A DNA stretch of 64,000 bases, taken from a virus. The translations under genes were made by a program, and so were the position numbers. The stretch spans positions 30,900-94,899 of the IMG/VR virus record IMGVR_UViG_3300025030_000062, one strand, 5' to 3'. Numbering within the stretch: the stretch's first letter is position 1; each line of letters begins with the position of its first letter. This document shows, piece after piece, positions 35,096 through 64,000 of the stretch. The notes under the pieces are model-generated. The model ran no database searches, had not been told where the DNA came from, and saw nothing but the letters and a program-made list of their open reading frames with translations.

Positions 35096-35317
35096 TTAAG
35101 TGTGCTCAATAACGTAATCAATCGCGTCCTGAACAGTAGTAATCTTCTCAGCTTCTTCATCAGGAATATCAATTTCAAACTCTTCCTCTATCTCCATAAT
35201 TAGTTCCACTGTGTCGAGCGAATCAGCACCAAGCTCTTCAAAGGTCTGATCGTTCCTTACTTCTTCAACGCCAAGAGTGTCTTCAACAATTTCTTTTACT
35301 TTTGCTTCAATACTCAC
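35096..35317 (-). CDS. acpP: Acyl carrier protein
   Basis: [11 protein letters not shown] phosphopantetheine-attachment motif and [22 protein letters not shown]. Confidence 0.93.
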
Positions 35318-41400: not shown

Positions 41401-41493
41401 ACATTAGCTTGAAACGAGTACAATTGTCAAGGAAAACTTTTAGGTGTCAAATTAAATTAAAACTTGCATTGAGATACCTCTTTGTGGTAGCTT
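41401..41493. promoter_or_regulatory. Divergent sigma-70-type promoters at strand switch
   Basis: Leftward TTGACA-18-TAATGT (41430-41401); rightward TTGCAT-18-TAGCTT with TG extension (41464-41493). Confidence 0.5.
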
Positions 41494-41522
41494 TCCGACC
41501 AAATCAGCACAGGAGGTTTGGC

Positions 41523-41717
41523 TTGCTACGTGAAAAAACTCTAACTTTACTCAAAGAACGTTCGTCTAATATCAAGCTGTTAGATATAGCTATTGCGACA
41601 GGTCTTAGCTTCTATTGGCTTCAGTCCTTTTTAAAAAACGGACATGATTCTGATCCTGGTGTTGATAAAGTCGAAACTCTTTATAATTATCTCAGCCCTA
41701 AAAAGCTGAAATGTTAA
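41523..41717 (+). CDS. Small HTH DNA-binding protein
   Basis: TTG 6 nt after AGGAGG; LLDIAIATGLSFYWLQSF...TLYNYLSP. Confidence 0.65.
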   Translation: MLREKTLTLLKERSSNIKLLDIAIATGLSFYWLQSFLKNGHDSDPGVDKVETLYNYLSPKKLKC

Positions 41718-45155: not shown

Positions 45156-47747
45156 TTGGACAAACAACTACCGAATAACCTCATTGACTATAATTTGCTG
45201 TTCAATATCCCTCTTGAGTTGCGGTTGCTTAATCAGTGGGTGGTTTGGGCGTATGAATTTGACGCAATGGGTAAGCTCACTAAAGTTCTCAAAAACCCGC
45301 ATAATCCTGAATACAACGCTAGCGTAAGCAAGTCTTCTACATGGTCTAGTTTCGAGCATGTGTTTAACGTTGCCCGTAGCCGTAACATGTTGGTCGGTTT
45401 TGTTATAACGGCTGATTGCGGTTATTGCTGCATTGATATGGATAATGCTTATGAAAAGAACGAAGATGGTACGCTGAAATTTAGCGATCCTGTTGCTATT
45501 CAAAAGAAGCAAACATTTATAGCTGAAAAGTTCAACAGCTATCAAGAAATTTCACCTTCAGGTTTTGGTCTTCACATTTGGATTAAAGCAAGCGTTCCTA
45601 ATGGACGTAAACGCGAAGGCGTAGAAATCTATCCAGGTGGCCGCTTCATGTCATTCACCGGAAATGTATTCAACAACGTTTCTATTGGTGATTACAATGA
45701 CCTTGCTAATCAACTCTGGCAGGAAATGGGTAAAGAGCAGAAGTCTGTCGCAACCGACATTACCGGTTTAACTAAACCTCAATCAATAGAAGATCAAGAA
45801 ATACTTCGTATTGCAAGCACAGCCGCTAACGGAGATAAGTTCATTGAGTTGTACGAAGGACGTTGGCAAAACATGTACCCTAGCCAGTCCGAAGCAGATC
45901 AAGCATTAATGAATTTCATTTGCTTCTATACGCAAAACGTTGAACAGGTTAAACGAATATTTCTTGCTTCAGCATTAGGTAAAACAATTGGCCGTAAAGC
46001 TAAACCGGAGAACTACCTAATGCACGAAAGATACGGACTCGTGCCAAAAGCTTTTGATAAGACCTTGCCCACATTAAACATTGATACTCTTCGTAACAAC
46101 CTTGAGGATCAACTTGCTATTACCCGAACCTCAAATTGTGGGCAACCTGAGACATCAAACCCTGTGCCAGCCGTCCAAGTTCCTAGCACCGGCAACCTAG
46201 CGCCTTTTTGCCCATACCCTAGTAACCCCCAAGCGGAAAACGGCCTTTCTAGGGCAAATTTGGAGGCCGTTTTCTGCCCTATCGCGCCTGTTCAGCCGGT
46301 TCAGCCGGTTCAGACCGTCGTGCCTGCTCTGCCGGTCCAAGCTCCTGTTTCTGTTCCTCAGACACATATAGAAAACGTTATATCTGAAACTCTGAATACT
46401 TCTGCCGTGACCGTCCCTCCTGGCATCATCGGTGAAATCGCACGCTTCATTCACGACGCTGCACCGCGCCCTGTACCTGAGATTGCTATTGTTGCTGCAT
46501 TAGGACTAATGGCTGGTGTTTGCGGTAGAGCTTATAACGTTTCAGGTACGGGTTTGAATCAATACATATTCCTATTAGCTCAGACAGGTAGAGGAAAAGA
46601 AGCTATCAGTTCCGGCATTTCAACTCTTATGAACGCTGTGTATAAGACTGTGCCGAATGCTAAGAGGTTTATCGGTCCTGCTAAGATTGCTTCTTCTCCT
46701 GCGTTGATGAAATATATTACCAAAAACTCTAAAAGCTTCGTTTCGATCATGGGCGAGTTTGCTGATACGCTGAAAAAGATGTCAAATGGTAGCAAGGATA
46801 CTAACAAGCAAGACTTGCGTATTGATATGCTTGACCTGTTCAATAAATCCGGTCATGGTAACGTTTTAGGAAGTTTGATCTATTCTGACAAAGATAAAAG
46901 CACTGAAGTAATCACAGCTCCCGCGTTCTCTGTTATCGGTGAATCGACTAACGATAAGTTTTATGAGCATTTGAGCAAAGAAATGATCCTTGAAGGCTTG
47001 TTGCCGCGCTTTAACATCATTGAATATCATGGCGATAGACCGCCGCTGAACAAAGCTCATAAGAGCGTCAAACCTTCTTCTCAGCTTGTTGATTACTTTA
47101 GTTCTATTTGTGCTTATTGCGATCAGCTTAACAACGGCGATCAGGTATTAAATGTGCAGTTCTCTATTGAAGCTGAAATTGAATTTGATAAATTTGATAA
47201 GCTTTGTGACTGGAAAATCAATACTGAAATTGGCGCGTTCAGGGAGCTTTGGAACAGAGCGCATATAAAAGCATTGAAGCTTGCCGCACTCCTAGCTGTA
47301 GGTGTTAATTACATTAATCCTATTATTGATATTGAATGTACCAATTGGGCTATCAATCTAGTGAGGAAAGATATTGAGAACATTCTTTCTAAGTTCGAAA
47401 CAGGCGAAGTTGGCGCAATAAACGTGCAGAATGAGCAGATAGTTGAAGTAAAGAAAGCGTTGAAGAGTTACGTTACTAAAGAATGGAGTCAGGTTCAAAG
47501 CTATTCCGGCGCTACGTTGTCTACCTGGAACCAACGGATCATCCCGCACAGCTACGTATCAGCCATATGCAGAACCAAGACCCCGTTTAAAACTGACCGC
47601 CTAGGCCCGATACCGGCGTTGAATATGGTGATAAAGTCAATGCTTGAATGTGGGGATATAGTTGAACTTACGCCAATTGATAAACGCAATAAAGGCTTGA
47701 GTGGGGCGGCCAAAATGTACATGATTGTTAACTTTATGGGAATGTAG
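45156..47747 (+). CDS. AEP-type primase-polymerase fused to a helicase (DUF3987-like)
   Basis: QWVVW, CIDMD, EISPSGFGLHIW, EIY...RF..FTG, SQSEAD; AQTGRGKE Walker A; GLLPRF. Confidence 0.88.
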   Translation: MDKQLPNNLIDYNLLFNIPLELRLLNQWVVWAYEFDAMGKLTKVLKNPHNPEYNASVSKSSTWSSFEHVFNVARSRNMLVGFVITADCGYCCIDMDNAYEKNEDGTLKFSDPVAIQKKQTFIAEKFNSYQEISPSGFGLHIWIKASVPNGRKREGVEIYPGGRFMSFTGNVFNNVSIGDYNDLANQLWQEMGKEQKSVATDITGLTKPQSIEDQEILRIASTAANGDKFIELYEGRWQNMYPSQSEADQALMNFICFYTQNVEQVKRIFLASALGKTIGRKAKPENYLMHERYGLVPKAFDKTLPTLNIDTLRNNLEDQLAITRTSNCGQPETSNPVPAVQVPSTGNLAPFCPYPSNPQAENGLSRANLEAVFCPIAPVQPVQPVQTVVPALPVQAPVSVPQTHIENVISETLNTSAVTVPPGIIGEIARFIHDAAPRPVPEIAIVAALGLMAGVCGRAYNVSGTGLNQYIFLLAQTGRGKEAISSGISTLMNAVYKTVPNAKRFIGPAKIASSPALMKYITKNSKSFVSIMGEFADTLKKMSNGSKDTNKQDLRIDMLDLFNKSGHGNVLGSLIYSDKDKSTEVITAPAFSVIGESTNDKFYEHLSKEMILEGLLPRFNIIEYHGDRPPLNKAHKSVKPSSQLVDYFSSICAYCDQLNNGDQVLNVQFSIEAEIEFDKFDKLCDWKINTEIGAFRELWNRAHIKALKLAALLAVGVNYINPIIDIECTNWAINLVRKDIENILSKFETGEVGAINVQNEQIVEVKKALKSYVTKEWSQVQSYSGATLSTWNQRIIPHSYVSAICRTKTPFKTDRLGPIPALNMVIKSMLECGDIVELTPIDKRNKGLSGAAKMYMIVNFMGM

Positions 47748-47764: not shown

Positions 47765-47802
47765 AACAAAGCCCTCCTTGAATCACTCAGGAGGGCTTTG
47801 TT
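47765..47802. terminator. Bidirectional intrinsic terminator
   Basis: AACAAAGCCCTCCT-10 nt-AGGAGGGCTTTGTT between convergent transcription units. Confidence 0.85.
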
Positions 47803-48454: not shown

Positions 48455-50518
48455 TCAGTTACTCCTTTTTGTAGTTTCCTGAACTTGAAAGCCGCGAAGA
48501 TATACACTTAGCGCACAAGTTAAATTTTAATTCAAATTCAATCTTAGATATTTCAGAACGTATAAAAAGCTTATGAAAGCCAAGTTTTGCTCCACAATCC
48601 TTACAGGTCATTTAATCATCCCTCCTACAATAGCACGGAAGTTCTTTAGTTCCGCAAGATGTGCAATACTCACGAAATACGTCTAAGCGTTCTTCGTCGC
48701 TGAGCAGCGAAAGCAGATGGTGAATTGTAGCTATAATTGAAGCGTTCGGGCCAATATTAGGATTAGGACGAATACGGCTGTTCGCCGCAAGAGCTTTATC
48801 CTTCTGCTCAAGGTGAATTCTAAAACGCACTATATCCGTCCTAAGTTCGTCTCGTTCTTCTTTGACATCAGCAAGCTCATTCTTCAATCTACAAATAGTG
48901 CAATTCTGCTTATCATAATGAGAGTGATTACCTTGATGCTTTTCGCATAAATGTTCACCTTCTAAAGCTTTGCTCATTTAATCCTCCTTAAAGTAATTAG
49001 CAATGCACCCCAACACAGCCTTTACCATCATTAGCTCTATTAGGCGCAGATTTAGTCAACTTACTAGCTTCCCATTTATCTAAAATCTTACGATATTGCT
49101 CGGTCTTGGAAAAGCTACCGGCGGCAGATTTGTTGTCAATATTAACTCGCACAGCGCCATTGCTACCTAGGAACACGTATCTGACATGAATAATACTATC
49201 TGACACAAACGTTAGTGCAAACAGCCTGTAATTCGTGTTTTTGTACGGCATCTTTTTGTATCCCATTGCCAGGAAATAAGCCTCGAAACGTTCAAGCAAC
49301 TTTTTCATTTCTTACTCCTTTCAGGCGGCAATTAACCGCAGTTAAGAACTCCTACAGCGTGCTAGCATAATACCACATTCAGCCAAAAGTTCAAGCGTTT
49401 GGCTACATTTTAATTTCAGCATTAAACTCTCCTGTTTCATTTAAGTGAGCAATTGACGGCAGTTAAGGGTTGAGCGGCGGCAGTTAAGCGTCTTTACAAA
49501 AGCGGGACCAGTAAAGCATTTCCAAAAGCTGCATACCGCCAACTTCATAAATAACATGAGGTTTGTATACAATAAACTTTCTACATCCGACATTGAAGAA
49601 TGTGAACGGCTTACAATTTCTATGATCGTTAATTGCTTTGCTTACCTTAGCAGCATAGCCGGTGTTTTGCGTTATCATTACTCACCTCCTTGATTCGCCC
49701 ATTGCTGTAAGGTTATTGCAACTTTCTTACCTTCGCCATAGCTAACCCATATCCAAGGTAAGTGTAATGCTTCGCGCCAGCAAGCTTGAAGATAGCGCCG
49801 ATAAGCTTCGGTTGCCTGATATTCCCGCACTATTCACCTCCCTGATTAACCCACTCTTCAAGTGTAATGATACACGGCGTAATAACAGGTTCGCTAAACA
49901 TAAACTTAAGCTCAACTTCATAGTAAACAATTACGCAATTTGCGGTTGCTACGTATTCAATTGTTCGCATTATTCACCGCCTTGGTTCAACCATTCTTCA
50001 ACTTCAATAATTGCAATTCTATGAACATACTTGTCTAAAGGAATAACTACAAAAGGCAGTCCATCTTTACGATTTTTAGACATGCTGGCTAACCCGCGCC
50101 AAGTTGTAATCATCACTCCAACACCTCCCTAACCCAAATTCGTTGACCGCTTGCCGATGTGCCGAATGACATAGCGCCAGGGCTTTCTGTTCTACCGTAA
50201 TACGTTACATCATCGGGAAACTTGGCTATCATAAACTTCTTAAGCGCGGCGTGCATTGATCCGGCTGTAACGATTAATTCAGTTTTCTGCTTATTGCTGT
50301 TGCCGTGATATAGTGATATTTTGAAGGTTCTGGTCATTGTTAAACCCTTTCTATTAGCTTATTATTCTTGCCGTAAATTCGCTTCATGCTTTCTTTAAGT
50401 GCATTATACCCACAATATTTACAGTGAAAGTAGTTCAGCATGAATTCATCACCTCGCCGCTTGGTAACTATTTCAATGATGCTGTGAAAGTCAAAGAAAC
50501 ATTTGAGGTGCTGAAGTG

Positions 50519-51130
50519 TCATACAAACTCCTTCGCAGTAACAACATCAGCTTGTCTAATTCGGCCATAGTAAGCAGTTATGTCATGAAGATGCTGGAGC
50601 TGTTTAACATGATCATTACAAGCGCCGATTTTAAGCTGAATACGATTAGGTTCATTTTCACGGTAATCAAGCCTAGCTCCTTGCTCAAACCAACTAAGGA
50701 TTTCTTCACCTTCTGCCTTGCTTGCTACAAAAGCCGATATATTGTTCAGGTATGCGTTAGCCCTAGGTTCGCGTAATTTCGTGCCGCAAACAAAGCAGCA
50801 AGGAACCATATCAAGCCCTATACCTCTTGACCTGAAAGCTAAAGATGTTCCTTTCTCTACATCTTCGCACCTAATTTCATATTCAAATATTTCTTTCTTG
50901 GAATCAGCCAAAGCAACCAAACCGCAAGTAAGCAATCCTTCAACATGATCAACGCGCTCTTTCCAGCCAGGATAACCATGCTGAATGTCATTGATAGTTC
51001 CTCGCGCTTTACAAATTTCATTTCTTACAACTTCAATGATTTCACTCAGTGGCTTGCTGAAGTCAGTTCCAAAGATAGGTTTGGCTCTGTATCGTTCGGC
51101 GTCGGCTTTCTGTTTCTCATGATCAAACAT
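50519..51130 (-). CDS. Hypothetical protein (CFVCG ... IGACNDH)
   Basis: RBS AAGGAG; 203-aa ORF. Confidence 0.6.
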   Translation of the reverse strand: MFDHEKQKADAERYRAKPIFGTDFSKPLSEIIEVVRNEICKARGTINDIQHGYPGWKERVDHVEGLLTCGLVALADSKKEIFEYEIRCEDVEKGTSLAFRSRGIGLDMVPCCFVCGTKLREPRANAYLNNISAFVASKAEGEEILSWFEQGARLDYRENEPNRIQLKIGACNDHVKQLQHLHDITAYYGRIRQADVVTAKEFV

Positions 51131-51775
51131 AACTTTCTCCTTATATTGTGGGCAATCTAAAGCAGTTAAGTAGCAATCGGCGGCAGTTAAGCGTCAAACC
51201 TGCTAATTATTTCTTTGATCTTTCGTAAATCTTCACCGCTAGCCCATTGACCTAATTCAACTAACAAGTTAGTCATTTCGGTGTAAGTAGGCAAGTTTTC
51301 AGTTCTAAGCCATGCGTCACAGCATTCTATCACGTAAGCCTTTTCAATTGTCATGCTAACCTCCCTGTTGAAGCTAAAACAGCCGCCAACATGCTATCGA
51401 AATACCTCGTAACTTGCCTAACAACCTTATCCTCATTACTCAGTTGCTTGATATCGCGCCAATTCAATTTCTCCCTCTTGCTACCGGTCCAGTAGCCAGC
51501 AATAGAGCCGTCTAATGTAAGGTCGCTAATGCTACCGTCCGTATTCTTGACAGAATAAATCAAGAATATGGTATGTCCTGGATCATTATGAATGATGTGA
51601 TTCGGCCAGTTGTCAGGACCGGAACCAAGCGCGAAAGATACGATCAGGGACGGCCTATTTTCGTTTTCTAGCGTGCTTACCTTGAAGTGCAGGTACGAGT
51701 CAGGGAAGCGAGCTTTGATGACCGCTGAGAGCCTATTTTGGAGCGTTTCTAGGGTTTGCATGGTTTAGACCTCCT

Positions 51776-52315
51776 TTATTCGCTGTAAGGTTTGTCCATT
51801 TCAGAACAGGACAGATATTCACTTCTAAAGAACGTAATAGCACGCTCGGCTTCTTCAATTGTGTCAAAATAACCTAAATGATGATTTCCGTTATCATGAC
51901 CAACTACTCTAAACTTTCTACCTACCGGATAAATACCTCTTATTCCAGTTTTACTATTTTTATTCGCACCTGCTCTATTTTCAGCATTTTGCTTACTTGT
52001 TATCAAACGCAAATTATCTCTAGTGTTGTCTAAAGAATTACAGTTTTTATGATCTATCTTAAATTCTTTAGTATTCGGATTATATAAAATTAAAGTATGT
52101 AGCAACACTAAAGTTCCACAACCATCTTCACACTTAAAAGCTCGTGCATAATAGTTACCATGATTTAGCATAACTCCGATTGTAGACCATTCTGATAATC
52201 TATCAAAATCACAAATATCAATAATAACAGTATGTTTTACTTTGTTACGCTGTACTACTTCAATAAAACATTTGTCATCTTCAAAATAAAAATCATTACT
52301 TATCATAACATCCAT
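51776..52315 (-). CDS. HNH homing endonuclease
   Basis: IDHKNCNSLDNTRDNLR; SKTGIRGI...HLGYF; lower GC than flanks. Confidence 0.8.
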   Translation of the reverse strand: MDVMISNDFYFEDDKCFIEVVQRNKVKHTVIIDICDFDRLSEWSTIGVMLNHGNYYARAFKCEDGCGTLVLLHTLILYNPNTKEFKIDHKNCNSLDNTRDNLRLITSKQNAENRAGANKNSKTGIRGIYPVGRKFRVVGHDNGNHHLGYFDTIEEAERAITFFRSEYLSCSEMDKPYSE

Positions 52316-52321
52316 TCCTTT

Positions 52322-52498
52322 TTACTTAGCAATGTAGCAGTTAACGCCAATAGTTACCGGCTTACCCTCAATCATAACGTCAGTAACCTTGTTACCATGA
52401 GTGCTAGCAACAACCTTAGTTTTACCGGATGTTGAGAGCGTAGGCTTTTGCAGTTCGATAGTGATTACCAGATTGTTACCTTTGATTTCTGCTTTCAT
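52322..52498 (-). CDS. 58-aa conserved hypothetical protein
   Basis: Manual translation MKAEIKGNNLVITI...STSGKTKVVASTHGN; RBS AAGGAG. Confidence 0.6.
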   Translation of the reverse strand: MKAEIKGNNLVITIELQKPTLSTSGKTKVVASTHGNKVTDVMIEGKPVTIGVNCYIAK

Positions 52499-52550
52499 TT
52501 TAGTTTCTCCTTTAGGTAAGTGGTGACAGTTAAGCGGTGAAGAGGGACAG

Positions 52551-52706
52551 TTAAGCTAACAATTTGTCAGGCACAAAAGACAACACAAACTCTTCAAACG
52601 TTTCATTCCATTGGTTCTTGTTGTCAAGACTGCCATATCTTTCAATCCAACCGAGCTTGTAATATTCAAAGTATCACTCTAGTTTAGTTCCTTTGTATTT
52701 GTTCAT
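52551..52706 (-). pseudogene. 51-codon ORF with in-frame TGA at codon 11
   Basis: MNKYKGTKLE*YFEYYKLGWIERY...LLA-TAA; RBS AAGGAG; terminal TAA lies in a CTTAACTG box. Confidence 0.55.
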
Positions 52707-53715
52707 TTTATTCTCCTTTCGCTTTAGCGATAGCTTCAATAGCTTTATTGTAGTCACCAATAAAGCTATTGTGTAATTCCTTAGCTGAATAAGCTTCGCC
52801 GTTATCAGCCGCATTTATGATATCAGATAACGCTTTGCTACAAAGCTCTAACGCTTCCAAAAGTTCAGGAGCAGCGACTATAAGCCTTGCGTTAGCTTCG
52901 CCGAGGTGCGCCCAAGGAAAAATTTCAGCTATTTTGTTGCAATGTTTATCAGTTACAACAATCTGTTCACCGTTACCGTCAATACCAGAACGAATTGCGT
53001 AATTCCAAGGTTTAGGCGAAACAGTTTCTTCAATGTTAGGAAAGCGGCTCATTGTGTTACCTCCTGTTTAGTCAATCGGTTGCAGTTAAGTAGAAAGTGA
53101 GAGCAGTTAAGCCGTTTCCTTATCCAGCATACGCTTAACATTATCCCGCTCAATAGTCAAGTTAGCGCGGTTATCATAATGTTCCCTAATCTGGTAGTCT
53201 ACCTCGTTGAACAGCTTCATGAAACGGTCATACATAGCTTTAGGGATAACTACAGTTTCGTAGTCAACTTTAGCCTCTTGAATCAGGCTAGCAGGAACGT
53301 GATAGTAAGCCGGAACGCCGTTAATCTCACAAGACACTTCAGCCTTATCAACAATCTTTTGCAGTATTCTCTTATCCATTTTAGGCTCCTTTATTGAATG
53401 TTCAACAGCTTGCAGTTATCAACATAAGCTTGTGCTGATTCTCTAGTGTAGAACGCTTTGTGTTTGTTGTAGGTGTTAGGGATAATATTGCAATCATTGA
53501 GAGAAATTTTAAAGCTTTCTGTATCAACAAAAACACCTGTTAAAGCTTTGCTTAATTGAATAACGTAAGATGAACTTTTGATACACTCTTCTCTGATAAA
53601 ACTACTTTTGCTTAAAGCAAGTGCTATAAATATTGACATTCCCGGCTTAACCTCTTCAACGGTCATTATCTGGTCCAAGCTGAATATCGCACTCATTCTC
53701 TAACCCTCCTTTCAA

Positions 53716-54054
53716 CTAGCTATTTGCCCACAATTGAGCACATTCAGGACAACGTTCAATCAACAGTTCTAGCGATAATTCTTGATCAACTTTAACCTCT
53801 TGCTGTTCAACTGGCAGATAGCTAAAGTCAGGCTGTTCAAGCGGCAACATATGATTGTAACCTCTAGCTAGCATTTCATCGGCCAATTCATCATGCCTAG
53901 CTTTGTATGATCCAGGCTCAATAGAGTTAACCGCTATGCGTCCTGTTATGGAGTGTTTCTTTTGCCAGTTATGTAGGAATTTGTGATGCTCATTATGTTC
54001 TCCTAATAAATGCTGTCTGCACATCACTTTAGGGTCTAGCAGCCACATTCGCAT
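53716..54054 (-). CDS. Pyrimidine-dimer DNA glycosylase (endonuclease V family)
   Basis: MRMW......CRQHLLGEH.E and RH..L..EM..RGY.H motifs. Confidence 0.7.
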   Translation of the reverse strand: MRMWLLDPKVMCRQHLLGEHNEHHKFLHNWQKKHSITGRIAVNSIEPGSYKARHDELADEMLARGYNHMLPLEQPDFSYLPVEQQEVKVDQELSLELLIERCPECAQLWANS

Positions 54055-54104
54055 TTCAGGCTCCTTTAGTCAAAGGTTAGCAGTTAAGAGTCAAACACCG
54101 ACAG

Positions 54105-54452
54105 TTAACAGTAAATCAATCCATCATCACCGACATAAAGGTCAACTTCACCGAAAGCCTTGCTAGCTTCCGTTAGCCGTTCACCTACTTCTTTCGGCCA
54201 ATCACCATCCCAAAATCCCGCACCGTGACCGTTACGAGTAAGCCAGAAGTCATGTCCAGCTTGGCTAGGATCATCAACTATATCATTCCAGTTTTCAGCC
54301 TGAAACTTAGCACAATCGGCTTTCATTTGATTTAGGCATTTCTCGCTAATATCGTAAATGCTGTAATCATCGTCAAGTGGTTCGCCGTTATCATCTGTTG
54401 AGGACCACAAAGCGGTTACTATGTATTGAGTTGTGAATATGTCTAAGTTCAT
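54105..54452 (-). CDS. Conserved acidic phage early protein
   Basis: ALWSS and QAGHDFWLTRNGHGAGFWD motifs recalled from many phages; function unknown. Confidence 0.65.
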   Translation of the reverse strand: MNLDIFTTQYIVTALWSSTDDNGEPLDDDYSIYDISEKCLNQMKADCAKFQAENWNDIVDDPSQAGHDFWLTRNGHGAGFWDGDWPKEVGERLTEASKAFGEVDLYVGDDGLIYC

Positions 54453-54797
54453 GGTTTGTTATCTCCTTTATTGTGGGCAGACTGACTCTTTGTAGTAGTC
54501 AGTATAACCTTTAGTTTCAAGGTAAATTTCTCTGACAAGCTTTGTTATTTCTTCAGGTTGTTCACATTCGCTATCAAGGCCGATACAAGCTATACCGTTA
54601 ATATGTAAACCTAAGAACGTATCTTTATGCGGCATTCCGTCTAAACAAAGTGTTCCTGCTGCAAAGTAAATTGCTCCTTTAGGCTTTATTTCTTTGTTAA
54701 GTATTTTCTTAACTACTTTCCAATATACAGTCATAGCACTATCTCCTTTTATTAGCTGATTCGTCAACAGTTAATAGTTAACAGTTAAGCCTTAACC

Positions 54798-55103
54798 CTA
54801 AGCAACCTTCTTAGAATTAATCGCTCTAACCCTAGCATCAAAATGAAGCGTACTAAAGCGATTAATTACTTCCAGGTTGTAACCTAAGCTTTCCAGTTCC
54901 CTCTTAAGCGGCATATATTCATCTTCTCTTGCTCTAACGGTAACACTAGAAAGGCTAACGCTTGCGCTAGAATGCTGGCCCATATGCATGTAACTAAGGC
55001 ATGTGCAATAATCGTTAGTTCCTGGCAGTTCAGGGAATAGTGCTATTACTTCGCCAGTATCTTTGAACTTGCGAAAGATTACTTTGGTGATAGATGCTTT
55101 CAT
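54798..55103 (-). CDS. Conserved hypothetical phage protein
   Basis: VIFRK...VIALFP...SYMH.GQHS...L..ELESLGY. Confidence 0.6.
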   Translation of the reverse strand: MKASITKVIFRKFKDTGEVIALFPELPGTNDYCTCLSYMHMGQHSSASVSLSSVTVRAREDEYMPLKRELESLGYNLEVINRFSTLHFDARVRAINSKKVA

Positions 55104-55383
55104 GGCTCAATTCTCCTTTATTTATTCAACGGTAATTGTTCGATAGCTTCAATGAAATAAGTCGGTTCTTGGCCGTTCATGTAATCATTCCATTCATCGT
55201 CGCTAGCCATTGTTTCAGCTATTACTTCAGCTTCTTTTTCATTGCAAGCTAGTACTTCATAGCTTTTGGTAAACGATACCGTTCTGGTTACTTCTACTGT
55301 ATAAATTTTCATTTGTTTATCTCCTTTATATTGTTAAAGTTGAAAGCAAAGCCAGTTAAGGCAAGCGTTAGCAGTTAAGCAAT

Positions 55384-55839
55384 CTATTTGCACATCCTTT
55401 CACCTTTCATAAACTTGCAAAGGTTTTCAGCTTGCCGTTGTGACTTACAATTGGCGTATATTGAGTCATCATGACAAACGGAATATGTATAACCTTGTTC
55501 CTTGCTTTCGGTAACGGTCCATTCGCCTACTGTAAAGCTTTCATGCTTATACAGAAAGCGTTTTGTTTCTACGTCCTGAATAGCAACAATGCAATGATCA
55601 AGTAAGCCTGAACCGCCTAAAGAACGTACATTGTTGACTATTAGCGGAATAGGCTTAATGCCGGTACTCTTGCCGATAGTGCCAATTATGTCATATTCAT
55701 CTTCCCAGGATTTACCCGTTTCAGTGTCGCCATAGTAAAGCCTAACTCTTTGCTCTCTTCTAGCGTTAAGCGTAGTTAGCCATTGTTTGACCGTTTCGTT
55801 AGTTCTATCGTTAAAGTTAAACTCTTTATCGTTTCTCAT
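55384..55839 (-). CDS. Conserved hypothetical phage protein
   Basis: RVRLYYGD.ETG.SW..E.D..G.IG.STG. Confidence 0.6.
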   Translation of the reverse strand: MRNDKEFNFNDRTNETVKQWLTTLNARREQRVRLYYGDTETGKSWEDEYDIIGTIGKSTGIKPIPLIVNNVRSLGGSGLLDHCIVAIQDVETKRFLYKHESFTVGEWTVTESKEQGYTYSVCHDDSIYANCKSQRQAENLCKFMKGERMCK

Positions 55840-58374
55840 TCCGGTATCTCCTTAGTAGTTAGTCAGTCCTTGACAGTTTAGTTAGTCAATCCTTGACAGT
55901 TAACAACTCGAAACAGTTAAGAGTTAGCAATTAATCGTGATAGCAGTTAGCAAACCTAGGCAATCCCGTTACCTTTTGCCATTCCCGAATGAAAGCTAAA
56001 GCATACCTCTTGCGCGGGAATTCACCGGCAATAAAGCCTTGGTAATCGCTGTTACCCTCTAAAACCTCATAGAACTGTTTGCCGTTTTCATGCCAATTCT
56101 TAGCCAAGAAACAGCCTTTAATGGCGTTATGTTTCAGGTATTGAGTTCTAAGGCACTCGGAAACAGTTATAGCGTTTATCATGGCTTCAGGCTCCTTTAG
56201 TGTGGACAAAGGCTAGCGGTTAAAAACCCACCACGTTATCATTAGCTATCAAGTTTCTACAATCCCATTTTCTTAACTCATTTGGAGCGGTATCGTTCCA
56301 TAAAATCCGCTGTTCATCCCATATAAGATCGTCAATGATTTGATCGATTGTTTTACTCATTGTTTGCACTCCTTTATAGTTTGCCCACAAATAGGCAACA
56401 AGAAACAGTTAAGGCAAAGCTCGACAGTTAAGCGTTAGCCGGTCTAAGCCGTTCCAAGATCATGTGAATTTCCCCTTGCCTATCCATTGACAAGTTACGA
56501 AAAGCATCTTTGTTGCCGTTCTTTAGCATGTTAATTTCTTTCCTGGTTAGTTCAGCTGATAAGCGTTTGAAGTATCCCATTGTCTTAGGCTCCTTTAGAT
56601 AAAGTTAGTTAACAGCTTTAAGTTTATTTACCATTTCTTTAGCATCGTTAAATATCGAATTTACCCAATTATCTTTAATCGGCATTCTGTCGCCTTTAAA
56701 ACATTGTAATTCAATTAACCTTTCTAGCATTCTTACAATCTCGTTGTTATCGCACATTTTAAAGGCTCCTTTAGAAAGTTAGGTTATTCGGCTCGATTGT
56801 CTTTAACTTCAAACTTAAACAGCTTGCCGTTTTCAAATGGACCAACAAGAGATTTGATCACAACAAGCTGGCTTGTATCGTCAAAGCGATAAACCGTTCT
56901 TTCTTCATTGTTACACTTGGTTGTTACTTGCTTAAAACCGTTAACGTTAAAAGCTATGCAATCTTTCACTTTGTTATATTCGTCGCGTGCTAGGCTCATT
57001 TTAAACCTCCTTAAATCCCTGGTTAATGGCCCACTATCACTTTGCCGGTAACTTGCCGTTTAAACGGTATCCTTAAGCCTTAAACTAATACTCTTGCTCG
57101 TTGTAATTATCAGCTATCTCTTGCCAGTCAATAGCGCCGATAGTCCAGCTTTCAAGTTTAAGCTTTCTAGCTTGAAACGTCGCTTTAACTCTGCTAGCTA
57201 AAACTTTATCGCCAGCTTTGCGAATAGCCGAAATAGTCTCATAGCTAGGCTGATCTTGCTCTAATAACCATGCTGCATTCCACGTTCTGCTATTCGTCCA
57301 TCCTTCATAAATTTCATCGACAGAAACAGCTTTAACAAGCTTATCATGTGGGCATTCTTCAGTATCACCAAATTGAAAGGCTTTGCCTAAGTAATACTCT
57401 TTTGCGCCTTTCAAGTCAGTATTCAGGCTAGTTACTATTTCGTTTCCATCGGCGAACTTAATTTTAAATGTTTTCATCGTCGTTATCTCCTTTAAATTGG
57501 CAAGCTGTGACAGTTAAGAGGCAAGGTAAAACAGTTAAATATAGTAAATAGCTCCTTCCCTTTTAAAATAACCAGCTTCATTATTATTGTCTGGTTCACC
57601 TTTAAAACATCTAAATATCTTAACAAGTTTACCCTCATGTGTTACAAAGCGAGAATAAAGCTTATAACCGTTTTCTCTTTTCTCTATTTCTTTCCAATTA
57701 GTTTTACGTTCCATTTCGTACTCTCCTTTTAACCGTTAGTTTCTTGCTACTTCGCTGCATAGCTTAAAAGTTAAGTTAAGCTATGCAAGGTAATAGCATG
57801 AAAGCTTGTTAGGCTTTGAGCTTATAAATCCTTTTCCCTGGTTACATCGGAAACGGTAAAGTAAAACTTATTTCTGTTATCCCTTTGGAGCTGGCAAAAC
57901 TCGTTATATTCAATTCCTTCAAAATATCCCTTATTTTGGAGCATAGTAAATGCCGTTTGCTGGTACGTATCACCATAGCCGTAATGTTTACCCGAATTAC
58001 CCAAATATACACCGTCAACAGTAACTGATACAGAATGATATGTATTGCCATATGATTTTTGAAACCATCGTTTGCCGTCAATTATAATCATGTTAAATGC
58101 TTTCATTTGTCCTATCTCCTTATTACTCGTTAGTTGCGCCGAAATGCTGGTTTAAATGTCTCGTTTAGTGCCGCGCGATACCTTGATATCAAAATCGTAT
58201 TTATCAGACTCTTTGATCCTGGCAATGAGCATATTTTCAATCTCTTGCTCAGTTAGTTCAAAACCGTTAGCAATGTGATTAAGCTTGATACTGATTTTAG
58301 CGTTATACGTTTTAACTCTCATTTTAATTACTCCTATAGTTGAAAGTAGCGACAGTTAAAGCAACAAGTGACAG

Positions 58375-58755
58375 TTAAGCAACTTCAGTATTCAATGCAC
58401 CGTCAAAGCATTCTGCTATGTAATCTTTGATATCATTTCTATCCTTACCAGTAACACGGATAGTAAAGCCAAAAGCTAATACCGGTTTAACGATTACTTC
58501 ATGTTGCGTCCAGCCATCGTAAAAGCCTGATTCATCCATATGATGAAATTCGGTGAAGAAAACGAGCTTTTCAGGAGTTGATTTATCAAACTCGAAACGT
58601 GTACCACAATCAAACCCTGAACCGCTTGGGAAGTGTTCTTTTACTATGTTTTCAATCGTTTCCGTGTGCCGGTCAAACCATTCACGGTTATTCGATTTTT
58701 CGCAATTGATACGAGCTTGGAAACTGCTAGCGATTTGCTGATATGCCTTTTTCAT
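58375..58755 (-). CDS. Conserved hypothetical phage protein
   Basis: PSGSGFD...FHHMDE.G.YDGWT. Confidence 0.6.
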   Translation of the reverse strand: MKKAYQQIASSFQARINCEKSNNREWFDRHTETIENIVKEHFPSGSGFDCGTRFEFDKSTPEKLVFFTEFHHMDESGFYDGWTQHEVIVKPVLAFGFTIRVTGKDRNDIKDYIAECFDGALNTEVA

Positions 58756-61700
58756 CTGTTTATCTCCTATCGGTTAAGGGTAAGGTAAGGCTAGCCGTGT
58801 TACTTGCCATTGTAGGGCATTCTAGGGCGTCAAATATCGGCTAATTTGCCGTGTCCAGCTGGATAATCCCGGTTATCGGCTGTGAACGGCTAAAACTGTC
58901 ACCTTTGCGTATCTGATAAGCTTCGTATATCGGACGCCTTACACCGTTAAAGCTAATAGCGTCTCGTTTCATCGTTTTAAGGTTATTCCTACCGTCAAGA
59001 ATAACTATTGCTCTATCTCCTAAAGCTTCAGCCAATTTGCCGGATAAATCTTTGTTGTAGTATTGAACGTATACCATGGCAAGCTCCTTTCTTATTGTGA
59101 GAAACAGTTACAAGCAAAATGCTATAACTGAAACAAGATAACTAACGCCGATAGTTAAAGCTAATGCTATGCCGGTTAATGCTATATCGGTTATTGTTTC
59201 AATGCTCATTGGCTAGGCTCCTTTACATTCTCAAATTCAATTCCGCTTTCTAATCGCATTCCCCTTTTAGTTAACTTGTGAAGATTGACAATTTTAAGCA
59301 TATACTCAAAATTATGACCGCTTCCGGCTCCATAAGAGCCAATCCAACTATAGCAAACTTTACCATTACTCGTTATGTATTGCTTTATTCTCATTGCTTC
59401 AATTCCGCTTTTAGTTACGTAGACTGATATAACTTGCATACTATCTCCTTTCACACGTTTTGTTGACACTTCACATTAGCTTTACTATGAGTTGCAAAGC
59501 TAATGTATAGGAGCAACTAAACAAAAGCTTACGATATAGTTATTTTATATGCCGCTTTATTATAGCGCCGTTTTGCCTCTTTTTTGGTAAGTGTAAGCGG
59601 ATAACTATCTAAATTCATCCATCCAAAATAATCACCAATAGCACGCCATGCAAATGCACGTTCTACCGGATCAGATGATACAAATTGATTAAGCAAGTCT
59701 AAGCTATCCGTTCCGATAAATGATGCTACACTTTCAAGTTTATCGGCAAACCATACAGGTAATTCAGGATGAAATTTGTTATCGGAAAGAATGCCGTTTT
59801 TAAAGGTGCAATCCTCTAAAATAGCGCGGTAAACTTCGCGCGTATCCGCTTCAAATAGTTCCATTTCCGGCGGATACGCGCCAGTAGTATCAACAAAAAT
59901 CCATAATCCGCCATACTCTAAAGGTGTAGCATCTCCAATTTGTGCTATGCATTTCCATATTGGTTGACTCATTGCTGTATCTCCTTTATAGTTAAATGTT
60001 ATGAACCAGATTAAACCCTAGCATCCTAGAATATTTGACAAGGTTGTAAAGCTTTCTGAAATGCAAGCTGATGCCGTTAACTGTTAAGTTGTATCCATTG
60101 TTTGTTTTGCTGATTTGAGCTTGCATGGTAGAACCTCCTTTTATCTCAGTTAAAATCTATTTGCCTAATCACCTTGTAAACGTTGCGTTTCTTTTTCTTA
60201 TCGAATTCAACAAACTGAGACAGTAAAGCATATTCGGTATGCAAACCTTTATTGTCTCTTCTAGCCTTATAAATTCGCATTAGGCGCAAAGCATTTCTTT
60301 CGCTGTTAACTGTGCTACCTGCTACATGGTTTTTATGGCAGATAAGATCGATACTATACTCGTTATAGCGGTTAATACCTTTCCATTTCATAATCCAGCT
60401 CCTTATTGTTATCCCCACAATTACAGCGACAGTAAAGCCAAGTTTCCGCTATTGATCGAAACGTTTTCAACGTTGCCAAAGATACTAGAGTAAATCACGG
60501 AAACGTCGTCAAGGTCTAAGCCGGTTACTTCAGCGATTAAGATATACATTTCGTCTTTGGTATACATGACATTTCTCCTTTATTTACCATTCTCAATATC
60601 TTCAGCCAGCAAACCATTTAGCAATTCCGATATCTCGTTAGAATATGCGCCAGAAACGCAAAATATAGCCTCATTGTAGGCACTCAAACAGCCGATGTGA
60701 TACTCTCTCTCAATGTTTGCATTTGCCCGGCTAAAAGCCATTTTTGCGCTTTCTGTGAGTAATTGGAGTTGCTGTTTTTTGGATAGTTTCATTTGTTTAG
60801 GCTCCTATCTCGATAGATTTAACTTCCCATTTCAGGATAGCTAAATCTTGACGCAAGTTGTTAGTAGTTAACGTTTCAAATACTTCAAACTTGTATTCGC
60901 GGTCAAATTTATCTTTGCTTGTCTGGAGTCTGGTTATTCTGTAAGTTGTTTTCATTTGTCTACACTCCTTCACTAGCAACAGGGAAATGGATAGCTTCAC
61001 CTTCAAGATTACAAGGTGTATAGGTACTGTTAGCTTCACCGAAATTAACAAGAGTTATACCGTCACAGTCAACAATGTAGTACCAGTAAGGATTAATCAT
61101 TATTTCATTCTCCCAATTACCACAACGGAAACAAACATTAGTAACGGTATGAAATGTGCGAAGTTATCGAATAGCATTTTGTTAGGCTCCTTAAGATGCA
61201 AACATGTAAACAGAATGCGGATCAATGCAAGCTAACATTTCACCGTCAAGAAGTATCTTTGCAAACTTGCGCAGTCCAGCGTTTTCTTTATACAGGGAAT
61301 ATGAAAAGAATACCTTTGCGCCGTAATTGCTAATTTCAGCGAATTCATTAACTCGTTTAACATTCCAAAAACCAGTGATAACGGTATCAGTTAATCCTAT
61401 GTTTCCGAAAGATTCAAACATATCAAGCTCCTTCACTCGGTTATTTACTACACTCTATCGCTAGCACTAAACAGGTTAATGCTAGCTAAGATAGGAGTAA
61501 ATAATTATCTCTTGCAATAAACTTTATTAGAAGCTTCTACTGCAAACAATTCGCCGTCAATATCGCTTTCAGTAGCTACACGAATAGCATTAGCACGAAG
61601 CATTTTTAAGAATTCGTGAGAAGTTAACATTTTCATAATTTCACCTTTATCCTTATCATGAATTTAGCAGATGATTCCTTTTAGCATAGGTCAATACCAT

Positions 61701-61835
61701 TGTCCAGCATATATTTTAAAATTATTTCTATCAAGCTTTGCTGTTCAAAACTTGCACAATTCCAGGCAAGCTCATTTGATCCGCTAACGGCTCCTTCACA
61801 GCTTCAGCAAAGCTCCTTCACTCTATGTAATCGCG

Positions 61836-61854
61836 TAGCAATCACAATGCCAAA
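61836..61854 (-). promoter_or_regulatory. Sigma-54 (RpoN) -24/-12 promoter
   Basis: Minus strand TTTGGCATTGTGATTGCTA = TGGCA-N6-TTGC with exact GG-N10-GC spacing, pointing into the early array. Confidence 0.55.
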
Positions 61855-61970
61855 TAACAGCCTTTACCGTAAACTTTCTTCATTTCTCTAACAATTCTCC
61901 TTATTGGCTGATTAAAGCCGTTTTAGCTCCCATTTTAGCCAATCTTCCGTTTTAAGGTACCTAAAATCAG

Positions 61971-62045
61971 TTATCCACAACTTTATCCACAACTTCAAAT
62001 TTCAGCCTTATTTCAATAGTTTAGTTAACTTTTGCTTGTTGATAA
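61971..62045. promoter_or_regulatory. DnaA-box cluster with an IHF-like site
   Basis: TTATCCACA at 61971 and 61983; TTTCAATAGTTTA (62011-23) near WATCAA-N4-TTR; inverted one-mismatch box TGTTGATAA at 62037. Confidence 0.7.
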
Positions 62046-62173
62046 CTCACTTCAGGATATTGCCTTAATACCGTGATAAGCATTAAACCCCATAACCGAT
62101 TTAAACAGCATCCTTGCTCGTTTAAAGCTATAATGCAATCTTTCATATGTCTATCATTTCAGCCAATAACGGT

Positions 62174-62220
62174 ATACTAGATATAGTGGTTCATTTGATC
62201 TATACCGCTATATCTAGGCG
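62174..62220. promoter_or_regulatory. Tandem NrdR boxes
   Basis: ATACTAGATATAGTGG (62174-89) and CCGCTATATCTAGGCG (62205-20) fit the 16-bp NrdR consensus with 31-bp start-to-start spacing. Confidence 0.7.
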
Positions 62221-62620
62221 TTACATTTTGGAACAATTTAGGCTCGTTTCCGGCCAATGTTTCCATAGTGCAAAGGTAAGGTTTAATTCTATACCAGTTT
62301 GATAGAGTTTGATTGTTCATTGCTTTGATAGGGAATTGTTTAACGGTAACTGACTAGACAACTCCATTAACCGTTAGTTCATTTGTTTACTTGATTATTG
62401 AATTTGATATATGCGGAAAGTTGAATGTATCCAGGCAAATTAGGATCGGCGTTAGCTCCTCTCGATCCTGTTCAGCTGTTGACGAATTGCCCACAATTGG
62501 AGCGTGCACCGTCTCGTTTCTAGCTATGTCTATTTGTGGGCAATGCTAGCGTATAGGGTAAGGGATTAGGACCGGCTGTAAGGCCATTTAGGACGCTGAT
62601 TATCGATGTTATAGACGCGA

Positions 62621-62652
62621 CAAAGGCCACTCTAACTGCTAGTGGCCTTTTG
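62621..62652 (-). terminator. Intrinsic terminator
   Basis: AAAGGCCACT-9 nt-AGTGGCCTTT downstream of ORF 62676..63059. Confidence 0.75.
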
Positions 62653-62675
62653 GCTGTATCTGGTATCGGTGAAGG

Positions 62676-63059
62676 TTAGTTTATACTTGCTTGATAGTAA
62701 TAACCAGAACCTTTCTTTTCATCGTAAAATGTGAATTCGCATATCTCGTTAAACATTGTACCGTCAAAGTTTAGAATGTAAGTCTGATAATCAAGCGGTT
62801 TACATTTGGAAATTTCACTCTTTGCGCCGTCCATTTCACATTCTGATTCTATAGCGCGTCCATGATTATATTCAAAGTCAACAAAGCTTTTAATGCCGTT
62901 TTTCTTGCTAACACTTATGTTATAAATGCTCGTTGGATTTTCAAAGGATTCACGTTCAATATCAAAGCTAAAACCTTTCGCTTCACATGCCGCTTTGACG
63001 TAGGAAAAGAACTGAGCCAAGCTAACATTGTTTCTCGTAATTTCTATTTCAGCTTTCAT
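62676..63059 (-). CDS. Stand-alone hypothetical early protein
   Basis: ATG after AAGGAG; has its own promoter and terminator. Confidence 0.65.
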   Translation of the reverse strand: MKAEIEITRNNVSLAQFFSYVKAACEAKGFSFDIERESFENPTSIYNISVSKKNGIKSFVDFEYNHGRAIESECEMDGAKSEISKCKPLDYQTYILNFDGTMFNEICEFTFYDEKKGSGYYYQASIN

Positions 63060-63100
63060 ATTAGCTCCTTTTAACATATTAAATTAACCTTTCGCCGTAA

Positions 63101-63128
63101 CTTATATCATTTCAATGACGCTTGTCAA
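63101..63128 (-). promoter_or_regulatory. Strong sigma-70-type promoter
   Basis: Minus strand TTGACA-16-TATAAG with TG extension. Confidence 0.65.
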
Positions 63129-63149
63129 TCGTTAAAGTTTCATTTCTCG

Positions 63150-63955
63150 CATTACTCGTTACACGTCTTGTTGCCTCATTCCGTTGCTCGTTGCCGGTCA
63201 TCCGCTTGCCGGTCATCCGCTTGCCGTCTCCTATCCCTCATACGGTCATGTGCTCCATTGCCGTCTAGCACGTCTCCTTTGCCGGTCCATACCGTTAGCT
63301 TGCCATGCTCCTTTACGCCGTCTCTAGGTCATCCTAGAGGCTCGTTTATCGCTTCTCTTGCCGTGTCTCGATAGATCGACCGTTCGGCCAGCTGGTAAGG
63401 CTCCTTTGATCCAGGCTAACACCTTGTTGCCATTCATTGGCTCATTACACTCCTTCACCTGATACCACTACCAAGCTCGTTAGCGCAATCATGCAAGCAA
63501 TCATGCTTATAGGCTCGTTGTCCAGCTCGTTGTGCTACTCCATAAGCTAATCCCATTGTCCAGCTCGTTAGTCAATACCGTCTCGTTGCCGTTCATACTC
63601 TCATTTCCCCACAATACAGCCGTTCCATACTTTGATCCGTCAACAGCTTGCCGTCTCACTCTTGCTTGTTGCTTCGATTAACTCATTACTTCAGCCGGTC
63701 TACTCCTTCAACTCAACAGCTCCATTGTCTTGTCTACTTCCATTACTTCGCCCATTACTCAATCCATTACTCATTGTTTATTACATCCAATAACACGCCG
63801 TAACTCTTTAATATCGTTCATGTTTTGCTACCGTTAAGTATCTTGTTATCAGATTGTCTCTACTCACTGAGTAACCTGGAGCACTCGAAATTTCCTAGTC
63901 ATTCCGCATACTTAGGGAAACTGAGTACCTGGTCTACTCACTACTGAGTAACCGT
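63150..63955 (+). repeat. Non-coding pyrimidine-skewed region of short co-oriented repeats
   Basis: TTGCCG x8, GCTCGTT x6, CCATTACT x3, tandem TTGCCGGTCATCCGC, and TACTCA/TGAGTA repeats. Confidence 0.75.
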
Positions 63956-64000
63956 ACCACTCCCCCGTCGAAAAACCTTTGGAGTTCTCGCTAGTTAGAC

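Follow-up and report, generated by a model that had tools for sequence, protein, structure and literature searches.

Oriented bipartite repeats between the early genes of an uncultured siphovirus-type phage and its relatives, possibly acting as polar barriers to transcription

Introduction

How do non-homologous small genes of one phage come to end in the same oriented repeat, and what could this repeat do? The question is raised by the heptamer TTAACTG (hereafter, the box), which recurs between the early genes of an uncultured virus, record IMGVR_UViG_3300025030_000062 of IMG/VR. The analyzed DNA (the window) is the last 64 kb of this linear record of 94,899 base pairs (bp), that is, its positions 30,900 to 94,899; the estimated completeness of the record is 81%, and all coordinates given below are those of the window. 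The early block comprises about 48 small genes with strong AAGGAG ribosome-binding sites, transcribed leftward from the minus strand from 63437 down to 47807, and it converges on the primase gene (45156–47747, plus strand). The box belongs to a bipartite unit that is carried, in addition to this phage, by at least eight further uncultured phages, whose primases are 42–80% identical to the one encoded here.

Anatomy and Strand Bias of the Repeat

The window contains 38 copies of TTAACTG against 13.6 expected, a 2.8-fold excess not reached in any of 100 shuffles, and 21 copies of CTTAACTG against 2.8 expected. Their location is strongly biased: 24 of the 28 minus-strand boxes of the window lie within 49339–58378, and 26 of the 29 minus-strand boxes of the whole record in its last 15 kb. 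The pair pattern, scanned across 94,899 bp, is found ten times on the minus strand, never on the plus strand and never as the reversed control, and only in the early block. This bears out the first-pass annotation of this DNA, made from the letters alone, in which no such pairs were seen in the tail and replication modules; the 11 sense-strand pairs listed there are also exact in both coordinates and spacing (six at 21 bp, three at 19 bp, and one each at 17 and 14 bp).

The same annotation considered the sequence between the boxes to be not conserved, which proves incorrect: TTG(A/C)(C/T) comes 7 nucleotides (nt) after each box, and hence the repeat is a bipartite unit of 19–21 nt. The matrix of 146 copies from six phages gives the consensus c-TTAACTG-y-N6-T-T-G-(C/A)-(C/T), from which it follows that a 21-bp doublet corresponds to two 19-nt units in succession, separated by a linker of 2 nt, and that this linker is missing in a 19-bp doublet. 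Among nine phages, clusters contain from one to six boxes in tandem, the spacing being 19 bp in 29 cases and 21 bp in 27, with few cases at 7, 9, 14, 17, 18, and 23 bp. The mixed 19- and 21-bp spacing disfavors a strict helical-face requirement; hence, of the earlier proposal that the boxes are same-face sites two helical turns apart for a repressor or roadblock, the two-turn geometry is not supported, 19 bp being as common as 21 bp, and the roadblock is retained as the best-supported reading (see below).

At 12 junctions, the whole gap from a stop codon to the following ribosome-binding site is taken up by a cluster of units (hereafter, a module), which is a doublet in 11 of them and a single unit in one; overall, about a third of early-gene junctions have units. 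Although the block is approximately 85% coding, 23 of its 26 copies are situated between a stop codon and the next ribosome-binding site. Lone boxes are seen inside genes at 52338 and 61388, and the lone box at 60147 overlaps the TGA stop codon of gene 60391–60146. The distance from the end of the second box to the ribosome-binding site is 14–43 nt, in place of the 10–30 nt initially given, and the last unit lies about 15–37 nt before the start codon. The strong AAGGAG site is present at every gene of the block, with or without a module.

Seven intact genes (ends at 49484, 51187, 53107, 54105, 56428, 57535, and 58375) are terminated by the TAA of the first box. The initial count was eight; the frame ending at 52551 has to be withdrawn, as an in-frame TGA breaks it in this genome and only a relative has it uninterrupted, and a ninth case had been overlooked, the 26-amino-acid open reading frame (ORF) 49422–49342, which ends in the lone box at 49339. 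The standardized cassette grammar suspected from these junctions is real and family-wide, with non-homologous genes fused to an identical box that gives them their stop codon. One element thus serves as a stop codon, a presumed regulatory site, and a joint for recombination.

Distribution in Related Phages

Below, the phage described here is labeled G000, and its relatives are labeled G001–G005 or with L-numbers. The scan of IMG/VR for the box pair with TTGMY adds five contigs, each with several modules. In all of them, the modules follow the sense strand of a block of small genes, and this block faces a homologous primase gene in convergent orientation; the pattern occurs as 37 sense pairs, with none antisense and none for the reversed control. 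The scan of viral contigs for the box pair alone returns only single, chance-level matches. The search by primase alignment, which is independent of the motif, yields two further box-bearing phages (primase identity 50 and 42%) and two box-less ones (35 and 33%); the scan of metagenomes adds L329, L330, and L335. In total, there are 202 sense and 22 antisense copies across nine phages.

The units are not confined to positions preceding genes. In two relatives, a module stands directly before the terminal hairpin of the operon, with no gene behind it. Association with sigma-70-like promoters is seen in several phages: six boxes of G004 continue into the −35 hexamer; a doublet of G002 covers both the −35 hexamer and the extended −10 element; in G000 and G005, a unit lies at about +15. 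These are individual cases; the scan of six blocks for sigma-70-like sites gives mostly intragenic matches.

Two further repeat systems came up in these scans. The box-less L327 (IMGVR_UViG_3300015076_000009; primase 33% identical) has the palindrome AAGCATGCTT ten times in 19 kb, possibly a separate system of regulatory repeats. Bacterial genomes, when scanned, give mainly cyanobacterial heptamer tandem repeats (TTAACTG/TTGACTG)n and chance matches, and provide no clue to the host. The arrays of the form (TTAACTG)n(TTGACTG)n in Microcoleus, Kamptonema, and Tychonema (L219, L201, and other loci) contain both heptads of the phage unit; this likeness is probably a coincidence with STRR repeats.

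Heptamers Inside the Primase Gene

In clade B (G001, G003, G004, L322, and L335; primases about 50% identical to that of G000), the antisense strand of the primase gene itself contains 5, 6, 9, 6, and 10 heptamers, respectively, oriented in the same way as those of the converging early block. The means over 1000 synonymous-codon shuffles are 1.1–2.1 (P ≤ 0.001 for G001, G003, G004, and L322; L335 was counted, not shuffled). The embedded heptamers are encoded as Q-L or x-V-K, several of them at conserved residues, and are confined to the first 1.5–2 kb met by a polymerase leaving the block. In the linker of the G003 (L196) primase, at approximately amino acids 298–318, three 7-amino-acid repeats, AVKRQEA, AVKGEVP, and AVKRQSL, are encoded opposite a complete module of three TTAACTG units spaced by 21 bp.

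The GC-rich hairpin between the block and the primase gene is absent in clade B. G000, G002, G005, and L330 have a strong hairpin at the convergence and no heptamer in the primase gene; the primase gene of L325 has no heptamer either. As the heptamer is selected here where nothing starts or is translated, these copies argue against translational enhancers and dedicated cassette sites, and make promoters awkward. They fit a signal acting on polymerase or RNA that moves in the early direction: selection of the core heptamer inside a convergent coding gene, in a lineage devoid of the terminator, points to a polar stop signal, not to a start signal.

Comparison With Known Systems

Oriented intergenic repeats recur in phage early regions, as stoperators, as repeats of T1 and TLS, and as the SAS, with the function established only for stoperators. 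The repressor of L5 (gp71) is a two-domain monomer whose asymmetric 13-mer sites are located both at promoters and in short gaps between genes, and it stops elongation in only one orientation (PMC9283540). Like the stoperators of cluster A (PMC9283540), the units described here are numerous asymmetric sites of more than 12 bp, found in short intergenic spaces and at promoters and co-oriented with transcription; the units at sigma-70-like promoters of G002, G004, G000, and G005 resemble the operator-plus-stoperator layout of L5. Unlike stoperators, they have another sequence, mostly form tandem doublets, and are concentrated in one 9-kb block (plus the primase antisense strand in one clade); unlike the case of L5, no lysogeny genes are found in this phage and no repressor homologue among the block proteins.

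Phage TLS has 18 intergenic direct repeats of 21 nt, also present in T1, Rtp, and Rogue1 (PMC11447400); their authors leave the function open and name stoperators, enhancers, and UP elements in this connection (PMC11447400). Those repeats resemble the units in being bipartite, about 21 nt long with conserved ends, intergenic, and oriented with transcription, in phages with no polymerase or sigma gene found and few sigma-70 promoters. They differ in having the consensus aaATAGCACnnnTTGnTAAAA and in being single and situated about 76 nt before start codons, whereas the units stand in tandem next to the ribosome-binding site and contain the stop codon of the preceding gene.

PeSL cassettes of T4-type phages consist of a sigma-70 early promoter and a terminator hairpin (PMC2839356, PMC4122927). 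They are similarly short, lie between small variable early genes, serve for homologous exchange, and bound indels and replacements (in our case, plain junctions serve equally). The units have neither the sigma-70 geometry nor a stem-loop. In cluster K mycobacteriophages, the SAS is reportedly an oriented 13-bp motif upstream of some start codons that includes the ribosome-binding site, and the ESAS is said to be an inverted repeat (Pope et al., 2011); in contrast, the units are direct repeats preceding an ordinary ribosome-binding site, and some of them are remote from any start codon. Nick sites of T5, phiKMV-like phages, and tf share with the box a short motif on one strand and in one part of the genome, but they are single and not tied to gene junctions (PMC3517423). 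GCTTAAC fits the inverse core RYYYAAC of integron attC sites, and the box often holds the upstream stop codon; unlike for attC, there is no integrase found, no complementary core, no imperfect palindrome, and no folded strand. Full-text search of the literature for the motif returned only primers and, as far as found, the motif, its tandem habit, the in-box stop codon, and the copies embedded in the primase gene are undescribed.

Further known signals were compared with the unit, some of them by hand. By hand, no sigma-70 −10 hexamer is seen 16–18 bp from either element, and T stands where A−11 is expected; relative to the sigma-54 promoter (TGGCAC-N5-TTGC), TG replaces GG in the box, and the spacing is shorter by one base; only UUAAC is common with the boxA consensus GCUCUUUAACAA; either half of the marbox AYnGCACnnWnnRYYAAAY (MarA/SoxS/Rob) matches the reverse complement of the unit, never both at the required spacing; and the geometries of ECF sigma, MotA box, PhoB, PmrA, ArcA, and IHF sites do not fit the unit. 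A sigma-54 start site, expected 12 nt after the GC, would also be placed within the ribosome-binding site or past it. The folding of modules is no better than that of shuffled sequence (mean z −0.36), and they have no Rfam match, so a structured RNA or terminator is rejected, as is attC, with no consistent inverted partner within 160 nt and no single-strand fold. Chi-like protection of DNA ends is rejected as well, since entry at the nearby end would require the boxes on the other strand, and avoidance of coding DNA is not expected of Chi.

Among proteins, tyrosine and serine recombinases (PF00589, PF00239) have no match in the 94.9-kb, 81%-complete record, and the control genomes all respond. 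Sigma region 2 has no match in the phage record, nor has the T7-type polymerase (PF00940), for which the control genomes gave no match either. The early region contains no large unexplained ORF.

A Polar Transcription Barrier as the Favored Interpretation

The interpretation that we tentatively favor, although we consider it less likely than not, is that the units are orientation-specific barriers to transcription in the early direction, their linear sequence being read by a factor; we infer the block, and its reading at the DNA rather than RNA level, from the features described above. A sequence-specific protein would recognize the 19–21-bp unit as one asymmetric site, mainly through TTAACTG and secondarily through TTG(A/C)C. 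The bound protein would halt or attenuate polymerase coming from the early promoters, not polymerase coming from the opposite side, and tandem units would strengthen the block. Sites at about a third of junctions could then shut off or grade a long terminator-free delayed-early operon, and, where there is no hairpin terminator, antisense heptamers in the convergent primase gene would stop read-through, protecting the primase operon. As a by-product, the shared 40–60 nt (module and ribosome-binding site) would provide homology for gene swaps between related phages. The doublets and triplets at about 20 bp, typical of operator arrays, would fit such binding, and the bipartite asymmetric unit would suit a two-domain monomer. 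As the phage looks lytic (no integrase is found in the 81%-complete record), the barrier would serve early shut-off.

If the barrier interpretation holds, stoperator-like control would extend beyond temperate actinobacteriophages, and the unit would be a compact orientation-dependent transcription insulator. We are more hesitant about the wider claim, which we regard as possible though rather doubtful, that this family of lytic phages might have a hairpin-less, sequence-specific, and strictly polar stop system, centered on the heptamer and read by a phage or host factor, combining punctuation of the 10-kb early operon, a substitute for the intrinsic terminator in the antisense strand of the convergent essential gene, stop codons, and an exchange joint.

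Several observations weigh against the barrier. Pfam and PHROG scans of the 48 block proteins reveal no regulator, and hence no candidate for a stoperator-type repressor. There are two helix-turn-helix (HTH) paralogs elsewhere, at 41409–41717 (plus strand) and 20534–20737 (minus strand); the HTH homologue adjoins the primase gene in all relatives, including the box-less L326, and a similarly placed HTH gene exists in Septimatrevirus Kakheti25. Its recognition helix differs among box-bearing phages, and this variability, together with the presence in a box-less relative, makes the HTH paralogs poor candidates for the reader. The heptamer, in turn, is identical throughout the family, and the spacer has more C than G, opposite to the coding background of the sense strand; both suit, at least as well, a reader that acts at the RNA level or belongs to the host. 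No unit is seen at the two early promoters further upstream in this genome (near 62.8 and 61.7 kb), in contrast to the operator at the early promoter of L5, and we know of no documented use of stoperators for early shut-off. The TTG(A/C)C partner accompanies only 5 of 30 primase-gene boxes vs. 68 of 117 block boxes and, as most of the former lack it, the two halves of the unit may do different jobs. Finally, the link between the missing terminator and the embedded boxes comes essentially from two lineages. The C-terminal part of the primase-helicase may be considered as another candidate reader, by analogy with initiators whose binding repeats are situated within their own genes or close by.

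Alternative Interpretations

Reading of the nascent RNA (UUAACUG ... UUGMC) by a host or phage RNA-binding factor, leading to hairpin-independent termination or endonucleolytic cleavage, is an alternative to which we assign a rather low probability; no higher is that of its expected outcome, the splitting of polycistronic early RNA and the destruction of read-through antisense RNA over the primase gene. Here, the strict sense orientation needs no special polarity, and the modules are indeed unstructured, with a C-rich and G-poor spacer as compared to the coding background. The invariance of the box at primase identity of only 42–50% is what a conserved host reader would impose; to our knowledge, however, no bacterial RNase or termination factor has specificity toward the TTAACTG unit. 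Spacings of 7 and 9 nt suit single-strand binding domains, and the box-only copies antisense to the primase fit a short RNA site, but arrays upstream of or overlapping sigma-70-like promoters (G004 and G002) would fall outside the respective transcripts. There is no Rfam match, and the likeness to boxA is limited to UUAAC, while boxA opposes termination. The early region of T7 is punctuated by RNase III processing sites, which provides a precedent for cleavage. If a host factor reads this RNA, it would represent an undescribed sequence-specific pathway of termination or decay. Among the options initially listed for RNA sites (processing, antitermination, or translational control), the RNA-level site is, thus, kept as a rival, and translational control is disfavored, the heptamer being selected antisense in the convergent gene.

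Delayed-early (middle) promoters, to which a phage factor would redirect the host RNA polymerase, are unlikely. So is the specific arrangement in which TTAACTG is a −10-like element, cf. TATAAATA of T4 late promoters, with the start approximately 5–6 nt further on and TTGMC in the leader. Oriented repeats before phage genes most commonly mean promoters, and the block has nearly no sigma-70 promoters of its own; still, the geometry of the unit fits neither sigma-70 nor sigma-54, and there is no match to sigma region 2 or, in a search that had no working positive control, to a T7-type polymerase. The modules start after 14 box-free genes, as would be expected of a temporal class. The box placed at −12..−6 gives a pyrimidine–purine step at −1/+1 and leaders of 21–52 nt, and TTGMC as a leader element would explain its absence from intragenic copies; at the same time, 5–10 antisense promoters in the primase gene would be harmful or need a second story, and we know of no precedent for doublets to sextets of promoters spaced by 19–21 bp. 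Modules directly before terminators, with no gene behind, are also difficult to reconcile with promoters, although PeSL cassettes, which mediate shuffling, are promoters (PMC2839356, PMC4122927).

A role in DNA transactions unconnected with transcription is quite improbable, whether the boxes are taken as targets of a nickase that cuts one strand or as iterons to which the neighboring primase-helicase binds. The boxes do cluster beside the initiator-like primase gene and, in clade B, inside it, including the in-frame 21-bp repeat (three copies) in the linker, and the conserved box goes with the conserved primase; the origin of phage lambda, for comparison, lies inside gene O. More than 11 dispersed clusters over 9 kb are, however, unlike any origin. 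The box is a one-strand motif irrespective of coding and is concentrated near one genome end, similar to the 14 sites of tf (PMC3517423), yet same-strand nicks 19–21 nt apart would release oligonucleotides, contig breaks at boxes are accounted for by strain mosaicism, and the location of 23 of the 26 block copies between a stop codon and a ribosome-binding site is left unexplained.

Dedicated recombination sites for the shuffling of anti-host cassettes, integron-like or otherwise site-specific, were the first option of the initial annotation and are very improbable. GCTTAAC matches RYYYAAC, the box contains stop codons, at least six breaks are seen at box edges, an indel of G005 lies between two module copies, and a gene is relocated in a co-occurring strain; against this option, no integrase or resolvase (tyrosine or serine recombinase) is found in the 81%-complete record, there is no consistent inverted partner and no attC-like fold or hairpin, box-less junctions break equally often, and the primase-gene heptamers have nothing to do with cassettes. 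Least probable of all, and close to negligible, are translational enhancers or standby sites in 5′ leaders, cf. the T7 epsilon TTAACTTTA: the last unit, about 15–37 nt before the start codon, is in the region bound by S1 or by a 30S subunit on standby, the units are unstructured, and TTAACT is presumably common to epsilon and the box (an overlap limited to 5–6 bases), but strong AAGGAG sites are present everywhere regardless of modules, some modules precede terminators with no gene behind, and untranslated RNA antisense to the primase gene also shows selection for the heptamer.

Gene Exchange at the Modules

Alignment with the block of G005 (primase 78% identical) shows a mosaic, in which three modules, each with its ribosome-binding site, persist as islands of 48–67 nt, 90–97% identical, between unrelated genes. 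The island at the 53071–53111 module (63 nt, 97% identical) is surrounded by replaced genes; that at 51151–51191 (67 nt) has unrelated genes on either side; and at the conserved island of the 54069–54109 module, G005 has an extra gene directly after the module and the ribosome-binding site. At the 52515–52555 module, G005 has an extra gene flanked by two copies of this module. The deletion joint 49488/49830 is observed both in G005 and in a co-occurring strain, whose contigs, from a second groundwater sample, show the same type of joint; in this strain, the first early gene (63059–62676) has been moved behind the module at 55372/55353.

Homology breaks within 2 nt of a box edge are seen at 49488, 51193, 53111, 54108, 55352, and 58380, the loose end of a contig at 55352 being exactly at the edge. 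Further breakpoints are at 51128 (the 51151–51191 module) and, in strain variants, at 57525 (inside a module) and 56390. After merging, there are 25 breakpoints: 11 at module junctions, 13 at plain junctions, and one (58750) scored as intragenic but situated at a start codon; modules occupy 11 of 34 junctions, and breaks at plain junctions occur mostly at the ribosome-binding site or start codon. As plain junctions break too, the modules are good joints, not special ones. The expectation that alignment of relatives would place gene gain and loss in the boxes is, thus, borne out by several breakpoints at box edges, but not as a distinction from plain junctions, which break as often. Shuffling would seem to follow incidentally from short stretches of shared sequence, as it does with PeSL cassettes of T4-type phages.

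The HNH endonuclease gene (51776–52306) is swapped for an unrelated small gene in both G005 and the co-occurring strain, with breakpoints at box-less junctions; it probably encodes a mobile homing endonuclease.

Individual Modules

All modules of the block are on the minus strand and are listed here in the direction of transcription. The first one (58341–58379; two units, 19 bp) stops gene 58755–58375 with its first box. The first box likewise supplies the stop codon in the modules at 57499–57539 (two units, 21 bp; gene 57714–57535) and 56394–56432 (two units, 19 bp; gene 56580–56428). Two modules follow an external stop codon: that at 55885–55921 (two units, 17 bp), flanked by degenerate TAACTG/TTGAC heptads, has it 10 nt upstream, and that at 55341–55379 (two units, 19 bp) 5 nt upstream. 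At 54756–54789, the heptads TTAACTG, TTAACTA, TTAACTG, and TTGACGA are contiguous, with the boxes 14 bp apart.

Each of the following five modules consists of two units at 21 bp. The first box stops gene 54452–54105 at 54069–54109, gene 53379–53107 at 53071–53111, gene 51354–51187 at 51151–51191, and gene 49678–49484 at 49448–49488; at 52515–52555, it ends the frame with the in-frame TGA, a small gene (52551–52706) that is intact in G005 and encodes 61 amino acids there. In the module at 51151–51191, the second TTGCC continues into TTGCCCACAA. This dispersed 10-mer overlaps the TTGCC half at 51146, is found inverted after the module at 56381, and has other sites genome-wide.

The single unit at 49327–49346, whose box TAA stops the 26-amino-acid ORF, is conserved in G005. 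It lies about 15 nt 3′ of the predicted start site of the sigma-70-like promoter 49367–49394 (minus strand; TTGAAC, 16 bp, TATTAT, extended TG), the sole strong intergenic match in the box-bearing stretch. In the block as a whole, sigma-70 promoter-like matches show no excess (48 vs. 43.6 expected), and no intrinsic terminators are found inside it. The GC-rich bidirectional hairpin (47765–47800), with T-runs on both sides, separates the block from the convergent primase gene.

Genome and Flanks of the Block

The genome is of siphovirus type, encoding a tape-measure protein, a J-like fiber, and tailspikes; its replication and metabolism genes encode PolA, an AEP primase-helicase, a helicase, a Cas4-type exonuclease, ThyX, MazG, a DNA ligase, an acyl-carrier protein, and an N6/N4 methylase. 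Megablast against cultured phages gives no match. The nearest cultured relatives are Septimatrevirus-type phages, with the primase and polymerase 42–51% identical and a different gene layout. DNA of the phage is present in groundwater metagenomes; the public runs listed for this region are DNA runs from groundwater and sediment, as contigs, with none of RNA among them. The block proteins are almost all ORFans in Pfam and PHROG scans of all 48, the only domain matches being an HNH endonuclease, DUF7249, and a weak N-terminus of endonuclease V.

The upstream part of the block (58380–63437, minus strand) contains 14 small genes and a 1-kb gene-free stretch, with hairpins at long junctions; none of these first 14 genes (63437–58375) is accompanied by a module. 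Long gene-free stretches at the head of the block (61637–62675 and 63438–64000) are dense in short direct repeats, including GAGTAATGG, ACGAGCTGGACAA, and GGATGACCGGCAAGC-like ones. Between them, the first early gene is self-contained, having its own sigma-70-like promoter and hairpin. This layout is reminiscent of the first-step-transfer region of T5 with its injection-stop region.

Long imperfect hairpins with arms of up to 28 nt are seen at 57740–57803, 59440–59528, and 61422–61504, at long module-free junctions; these could be processing or operator sites, and as such a second type of punctuation in the same block. At 49678–50113, three consecutive small paralogous genes (47, 46, and 50 amino acids) share the C-terminal -NQGGE, which is set by the ribosome-binding site of the next gene, because AAGGAGGTGA of that site encodes it. 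In the replication and nucleotide-metabolism module, the gene of the acyl-carrier protein (35096–35317; PP-binding, E = 2.6e-16) is kept in four relatives.

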